IMG/VR virus record: IMGVR_UViG_2529293265_000005
Reading direction: 5' to 3' (one strand)
Length of the DNA stretch: 6,699 bases
Source of the DNA: a virus
Taxonomy: Duplodnaviria > Heunggongvirae > Uroviricota > Caudoviricetes
How positions within the stretch are numbered: position 1 is the stretch's first letter; each line of letters begins with the position of its first letter. The notes under the pieces were generated by a model, which had not been told where the DNA came from, did no database searches, and saw nothing but the letters and a program-made list of their open reading frames with translations. A program made the position numbers and the translations under genes. Below, piece after piece: positions 579 to 1,900 of the stretch.

Positions 579-1718
579 CACCACCGGGACGCGGATTCAT
601 ATCTTCCAGGTCGCGGCAGTCATTGGAAGAGTAAATTCCCCAGTTGATCCCGGTGGCGTAGGCTTCAAAACGGGACTTCATATCCCCGCGCAGTAACGCC
701 CCGGCGTTAAATTTGGCGTAATAAACGCCCTGCTTACTTTTTCGTACCAGTCCGGTGTTGATCCGCTGTTCGATGCGGGTCAGATACGGCACCAGTGAAT
801 AGTTGATAAATCCCAGCCCCAGCTCTTCGATATTGTTGAAGGTGGCGCGATCGGTGTTCTGCACCATGTGCAACGGCACCCGGAACAGACGACAGATTTC
901 TTCCAGCTGAAACTTGCGGGTTTCCAGGAACTGACTGTCCTCGGCGTTCAGCGCCATCGACTTCCAGTCCAGCCCCATTTCCAGAATCATCGGGCGGTGA
1001 GCATTGCCAAGCCCCGTGTGACACTCCTCAAAATCTTTCTTCAGACGCTCGTAAGCATCCGGCGTGAGCTTTTGTTCCGTACGCAACACACCGGATGTCA
1101 CCGCACCATTACTAAACAACCTGGCACCGTGCTCCTCGGTTGCCGCTGCCAGTGAAATGGCCTCACGCGCATACGCAATGGGATTCAGCCCGACAAGTCC
1201 ATCCAGCGTCAGGGTGCGCACATGCCAGATTTCATTCTGGGTCAACACATCCACGGAACCATCCGGAAACGTCACCTGATAAACCGGCTGCCACTGGCTG
1301 TTCAGCTTCGGTTCCACACAGCCCGGATCTATCGGAAGAAGCTCCACCACTTCTCCCAGTGCCTTTACCTTGTAGGCGTAAAAATTCCCCCGTAGACACA
1401 GGCAGACAATAACCAGCTCCCAGAATTCCTGCGGTGTCATGTAGCCATTAGGTTTTGCCGAAACCAACTTATGCAGTCGTTCATCCACCGCCCGTGTTTT
1501 CAGGGTACCGCTGATTTTGTAGAGACTGCAGGGCAGCATACCAACAGACTCTGCCAGCACCCTGACGCAAGAATAGACCGCCGTCAGGCGCATGGCCCGC
1601 TGGCTACTGATCCGCTTTCCGGTATAGGTGTCGTATGACAGCCCGATAGCATCAGCAGTTCTGCTGGCGTGGTCACCGGCACATCGCTTTTTCGTTGAAA
1701 TAATCCCGAAAAGAACAC
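579..1718 (-). pseudogene. HK97-family phage portal protein; apparent frameshift near the 5' end (about 1650-1660) and C-terminus truncated by the IS4 insertion at 578/579
   Basis: Body of track ORF 562..1809 contains portal-like motifs (MRLTAVYSCVRVLAESVGMLPC near the N-terminus, DLEDMNPRPGG near the C-terminus). The last codons VMPIS-stop are read from IS4 terminal sequence. No ATG or GTG lies in the body frame between 1718 and the conserved motif. A different frame has GGAGG, 6 nt, then GTG at 1718-1716 (overlapping the upstream stop as TAGTG) and encodes MFFSGLFQRKSDVPVTTPAELL before degenerating and stopping at 1586-1584. Confidence 0.6.
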
Positions 1719-1900
1719 TATTTACCTCCGCCGACAGACTGCCGTGTACGGTCGAGATATCGCGCCACCAGCCACGACCAGAACAGGCACAGCGCCCCGG
1801 CAACAACAAAACCCGCCGGGGGATAAATCAGCCAGGCACCATACGCCAGCAAAAGCGCACCCAGCACGCCCACCAGAGGCGCGAGAATCAGCATGATCAT
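1718..1900 (-). CDS. Hypothetical small membrane protein (60 aa, two predicted transmembrane helices, basic C-terminal tail)
   Basis: ATG at 1900-1898 preceded by GAGGT at good spacing, starting 11 nt after the terminase large subunit stop. Stop TAG 1720-1718 overlaps the putative portal GTG. Sequence [60 protein letters not shown] has two hydrophobic segments split by PPAG. It is on the sense strand and fills what would otherwise be a 190-bp gap in a tightly packed late operon. Confidence 0.55.

Follow-up and report, generated by a model that had tools for sequence, protein, structure and literature searches.

The portal gene (562-1718) of the window, by which we mean the whole 6,699-nucleotide stretch of DNA analysed, is almost certainly a real and ordinary pseudogene with two lesions, lying in a decaying cryptic prophage remnant of the P27/ST64B/e14 type, as in Shigella sonnei. 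In the mechanism we propose, loss of a G from CTGGCT at 1656/1657 would cause translation from GTG 1718 to stop after 44 codons. At the other end, an IS4 element at 578/579 has taken the 33 final codons, along with the entire head and tail module that should follow. Both lesions and their fixation in the examined assemblies are observed directly, and ribosomes starting at GTG 1718 can be expected to yield a 44-aa peptide and no functional portal. Given the deletion and the IS4 truncation, we therefore class the gene as a pseudogene of the HK97 portal family and not as a functional member.

The phenomenon is already known in kind, being an ordinary prophage pseudogene. Expansion of IS elements and decay of genes are known features of the S. 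sonnei genome, and the portal is a further case in this species of a prophage decaying and of genes lost through IS activity; it raises no new question. Its main relevance is to annotation: the locus should be labelled a portal pseudogene of the HK97 family, frameshifted and 3'-truncated, with its native start at GTG 1718.

The portal start and the lost base

All features described here lie on the minus strand unless stated otherwise. Between the terminase and the portal sits a 60-aa ymfR-like membrane protein gene (1718-1900), whose homologues are annotated as ymfR or as a membrane protein. The native portal start codon, a GTG at 1716-1718, overlaps the TAG stop of this gene by one base, the G (TAGTG), and portal translation may be coupled to the upstream gene through the overlap. 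Direct reading places a putative Shine-Dalgarno sequence, GGAGG, at 1727-1731, within the end of the ymfR-like gene and 6 nt before the GTG. We aligned the DNA of the window with four homologues (phiP27 L38, E. coli A36, Salmonella phage ST64B sb4 and the K-12 e14 remnant) and found the GGAGG-N6-GTG arrangement invariant across all five sequences. The homologous GTG is the annotated portal start in phiP27, A36 and e14; the ST64B record places the start one codon upstream, at an ATA. A reading of the DNA made beforehand without database searches (the sequence-only reading) had proposed GTG 1718, preceded by GGAGG and 6 nt in a third frame, as the true start, and annotated homologue starts do map there.

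The first 20 portal codons and 2 nt of the next (MFFSGLFQRKSDVPVTTPAE + CT) are read in the original frame at 1657-1718. Past codon 21 the ORF now read from the GTG is out of frame, ending after 44 aa at a TGA at 1586-1584 (ORF 1584-1718); its product begins MFFSGLFQRKSDVPVTTPAELLMLSGCH / MFFSGLFQRKSDVPVTTPAELLMLSG. The portal body (579-1656), whose frame is -1 with respect to the GTG, comprises restored codons 22-380 and the whole PF04860 domain, and direct reading confirmed that this frame contains no ATG or GTG upstream of ATG 1593, as the earlier reading had said.

The two frames are parted by a single base. Against the four homologues the window shows exactly one gap, CTGGC(G/T) to CTGC(T), at 1657/1656, matching the predicted 1-nt indel near 1650-1660: one G of an ancestral CTGGC is gone and a single G is kept at 1656. 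The homologues read GA(G)CTGGCGGA(T/G)GC here and the window GAACT-GCTGATGC. The lost G falls in codons 21/22 (CTGGCT), as the first base of the GCT Ala codon, and when it is put back the portal reads MFFSGLFQRKSDVPVTTPAELADAIGLSYD, with ...TTPAELADAIGLSYDTYTGKRISSQRAMRLTAVY... around the junction. Joining the frames by one inserted base was thus the right repair, although the junction is ...TTPAELADAIGLSYD and not the ...AELL-DAIG proposed.

With the base restored, the N-terminal 103 aa align in one frame and in one piece with phiP27 (96% identity), ST64B (85%) and Yersinia phage YeP1 (63.5%), and more distantly, again from residue 1, with Vibrio phage portals; at least 80% of this segment is covered in 198 records. 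The alignments from residue 1 bear out the proposal that MFFSGLFQRK is a conserved portal N-terminus, and none of the outcomes that the sequence-only reading had named as counting against it (homologues starting at ATG 1593 or at a cluster of TTG codons, a single frame with no indel, a non-conserved N-terminal peptide) was seen. Identity of the restored protein over residues 1-380 amounts to 97% with the portals of phiP27 and A36 and 91% with that of ST64B. It scores 263.6 bits against TIGR01537 (portal_HK97; cutoff 112.05), covering profile positions 3-343 of 343 and placing it in that family, and 359.2 bits against PF04860 (profile 2-321 of 321), the Pfam domain spanning residues 47-373. In the window itself no single uninterrupted ORF runs from native start to native stop, given the deletion at 1656/1657 and the IS4 truncation at 578/579. 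Where the three intact portals agree, the S. sonnei protein carries the substitutions A13V, R233C and P365S, as well as D162N (E in ST64B), which are compatible with relaxed selection after inactivation.

The intact arrangement is common among relatives. A 501-nt query over the site gave 1,394 matching records among 5,426 complete E. coli genomes (1,384 genomes represented) and 20 among phages, all of them annotated as terminase, ymfR or membrane protein, and portal. A 111-nt query over the site spans 112 nt in the E. coli genomes: none of the 5,426 carries the deletion allele over the full query, and the best full-length matches, at 93.8% identity, have the additional base. A 29-mer scan for the exact deletion allele in one genome per species (GTDB representatives) gave no match, as expected because GTDB merges Shigella into E. 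coli; among the genomes searched, the allele turned up in S. sonnei-type assemblies and nowhere else. Scanning for the restored allele with the same flanking SNPs (GCAGAACTGGCTGATGCTATCGG) also gave no match; an intact ancestor sharing the nearby substitutions specific to S. sonnei did not turn up, and the ancestral state is therefore deduced from the more distant homologues.

Inherited mutation, sequencing error and translational bypass

Is the missing base a sequencing or assembly error in the window, the gene being truly intact at its 5' end? The assembly does have errors, since the window carries five singleton 1-nt homopolymer indels. Compared with the S. sonnei assemblies it shows 3 substitutions and 5 single-base indels, all outside the deletion site (99.87% identity over 6,368 bases to CP000038.1, identified in published papers as S. 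sonnei Ss046), and the window-specific indels, at 6063, 5862, 5834, 4181 and 233, all lie in homopolymer runs of 5-7 bases. The portal deletion is absent from these window-only differences and sits in a GG dinucleotide, with no long homopolymer. Moreover, the exact 191-nt stretch 1560-1750, deletion included, recurs in every one of the 14 S. sonnei-type loci fetched, which come from 13 independent assemblies, among them Ss046 and many short-read draft contigs. The deletion is common to all assemblies fetched and not specific to the window, and we therefore attribute it to an inherited mutation of the lineage. An artefact at this position is accordingly very improbable. The earlier reading had left the choice between a pseudogene and a sequencing indel; the first stands, and the second falls, since 13 assemblies carry the identical allele. 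Judged by these comparisons the deletion is a real, inherited mutation, with sequencing error refuted for practical purposes. The five window-specific indels, for their part, look like assembly errors or slippage; those at 6063, 5862, 5834 and 4181 appear intergenic.

A second possibility is that the frame change is bypassed in expression, by -1 slippage on CGA AAA AGC (an A5 run at 1692-1688) or by termination and reinitiation at ATG 1593 (1591-1593), so that a working portal is made. With the body frame open from 1809 onward, a -1 slip at any point within 1718-1584 would read through. ATG 1593, which corresponds to Met43 of the intact protein, sits 7 nt upstream of the TGA ending the 44-aa ORF, and the Pfam portal domain begins at residue 47, after this Met. 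Yet the GTG frame lacks an X XXY YYZ heptamer between 1718 and 1584, where the A5 run is the sole homopolymer, and the same run occurs in intact homologues that need no shift. All compared homologues are in a single frame, with no two-frame arrangement conserved among them, and the top matches in complete E. coli genomes carry the extra base; programmed -1 frameshifting was rejected on the lack of a heptamer and the single frame of the homologues. No Shine-Dalgarno sequence is evident before ATG 1593, and the C-terminus and all partner genes (protease, capsid, tail) are lost, leaving a portal without assembly partners. We consider production of a working portal by either route highly unlikely.

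To judge from the sequence, some N-terminally truncated protein with the whole Pfam domain could nevertheless arise by low-level reinitiation at ATG 1593. One elaboration treats the locus as two overlapping cistrons, the second giving a 343-aa, doubly truncated portal that S. sonnei might keep, alongside the intact terminase, HNH and lysis genes, for some function outside the virion; we regard this as hardly credible. Two lesions in an ordinary pseudogene remain our preferred reading.

Gene calling at the locus is confounded by a 415-aa ORF (562-1809) that begins TTG TTG TTG. Cys, Trp and Arg abound in its ~52 N-terminal residues, and the ORF overlaps the 60-aa membrane ORF at 1718-1809. That this ORF, read from the TTG cluster at 1809, is a real protein is the least believable of the alternatives: it is the longest ORF, and a 414-aa product from the second TTG is called in CP000038.1 (7840-9084 of our locus L011), but its ~52 N-terminal residues are unmatched in homologues, 92 nt of it coincide, in another frame, with the conserved ymfR-like gene, and the homologues begin 30 codons downstream of the TTG start in a different frame. 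The sequence-only reading had taken its N-terminus for out-of-frame translation, and no homologue has a counterpart to it; the ORF exists because a frame happens to be open, and it is not the gene.

Public annotations of the portal locus fall into three inconsistent calls: 414 aa from a TTG (Ss046), 343 aa from ATG 1593, used as the start in several public gene calls, and no protein at all. The 343-aa fragment is found in 1695 blocks of a public assembly index, and some NCBI assemblies list no protein at the locus (as at our locus L005), consistent with a pseudogene flag.

IS4 truncation and the prophage remnant

At the 3' end the portal adjoins the end of an IS4 element (1-578) at 578/579. 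The terminal repeat, TAATGCCGATCAGTTAAGG from 578, presumably is that of IS4, going by the IS4 end sequence. Beside this inverted repeat lies an IS4-type transposase N-terminus (189-512), with the PF13006 Nterm_IS4 domain at 192-512 (E 1.1e-22) and a match to NF033592, and in complete genomes (L008 and L009) the product of the same element is 442 aa long and has both an Nterm_IS4 and a DDE_Tnp_1 domain. In the window the transposase ORF ends at 189, frameshifted by the window-specific indel at 233.

The insertion replaces portal codons 381-413, the last 33, with VMPIS-stop (562-578). The portal frame ends ...DMNPRPGG-VMPIS-stop, where the homologues go on ...GGDVYLTPMNMTT... for 33 residues more, and homology to E. 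coli prophages ends at 579-581, coinciding with the IS4 junction. Beyond IS4, the complete genomes continue with further IS elements and with genes of the chromosome (bamE/recN, or raiA/pheA), and no prohead protease or capsid gene was found past the element in the complete genomes examined. The head and tail module downstream of the portal is gone. The damage recognized earlier was thus confined to the 5' lesion, which stands, and this second lesion at 578/579 had been missed. The genes past IS4 vary among complete S. sonnei-type genomes (L005-L011), with another IS and then bamE/recN in some and raiA/pheL/pheA/tyrA/aroF in others, which indicates IS-mediated rearrangement at the prophage remnant.

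The upstream half of the head module is kept, with a gene for an HNH endonuclease (4257-4607), one for a P27-family small terminase (3642-4145) and one for an intact, 577-aa large terminase (1912-3645; PF03354, PF20441). In the public assembly index, 4305 blocks contain exactly this large-terminase protein sequence. A complete head-morphogenesis module of small and large terminase, portal, prohead protease and major capsid is absent from the window. Further upstream lie Rz (4650-5126) with an embedded Rz1 (4712-4894), a lysozyme (5111-5608) and a P21-type holin (5611-5823). From holin through large terminase (1912-5823), including lysozyme, Rz/Rz1, HNH and the small terminase, all are intact ORFs despite the lost head and tail genes.

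At the far end of the window, on the plus strand, lies the end of an IS3-family element (6367-6699), which begins TGAAGTGGCACACTGAATTTGG at 6367, has its orfA from 6439 (PF01527, HTH_Tnp_1) and looks IS911-like. The fetched S. sonnei loci have no IS3-family element there, and their homology to the window ends at 6368; the element would therefore reflect a strain-specific IS insertion or a rearrangement upstream of the holin.

Two other observations concern variation among related records. One S. sonnei-type locus (L009, GCA_008727295.1) differs by ~75 substitutions confined to lysozyme and Rz/Rz1 (window 4683-5579) and is otherwise nearly identical, which suggests a recombinational swap of the lysis cassette with another lambdoid prophage. 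A 1764-bp record labelled 'Enterococcus phage Efm 3-10' (OR844959.1) matches the enterobacterial ymfR/portal region of the window at 97% identity and is probably a contamination or a mislabelled record.

Comparison with known portals

The closest known systems are the Stx2e phage phiP27 (L38, NP_543090.1) and E. coli A36 (WP_240745495.1), which share with the window the order large terminase, 60-aa membrane gene, portal. Their portals have the same GGAGG-N6-GTG start overlapping the upstream stop, and the 97% identity is reached once the G is restored. Both are intact at 413 aa, with a prohead protease or head gene next in line; the window portal has no such gene after it. Salmonella phage ST64B sb4 (NP_700377.1), at 91% identity, is likewise intact, has a sequence identical to the restored junction, AELADAIGLSYD, and is described in its own record as similar to HK97 gp3.

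The K-12 e14 remnant offers a parallel in decay. Its portal, presumably the gene named beeE, lies beside ymfR in a decayed prophage and is annotated as a pseudogene from the same GTG, in a region whose DNA is 93% identical to the window. Unlike the S. sonnei portal, which retains 380 codons yet bears the frameshift and ends at IS4, the e14 portal is free of a 5' frameshift; a deletion that fused it to a baseplate gene has taken its C-terminal two thirds.
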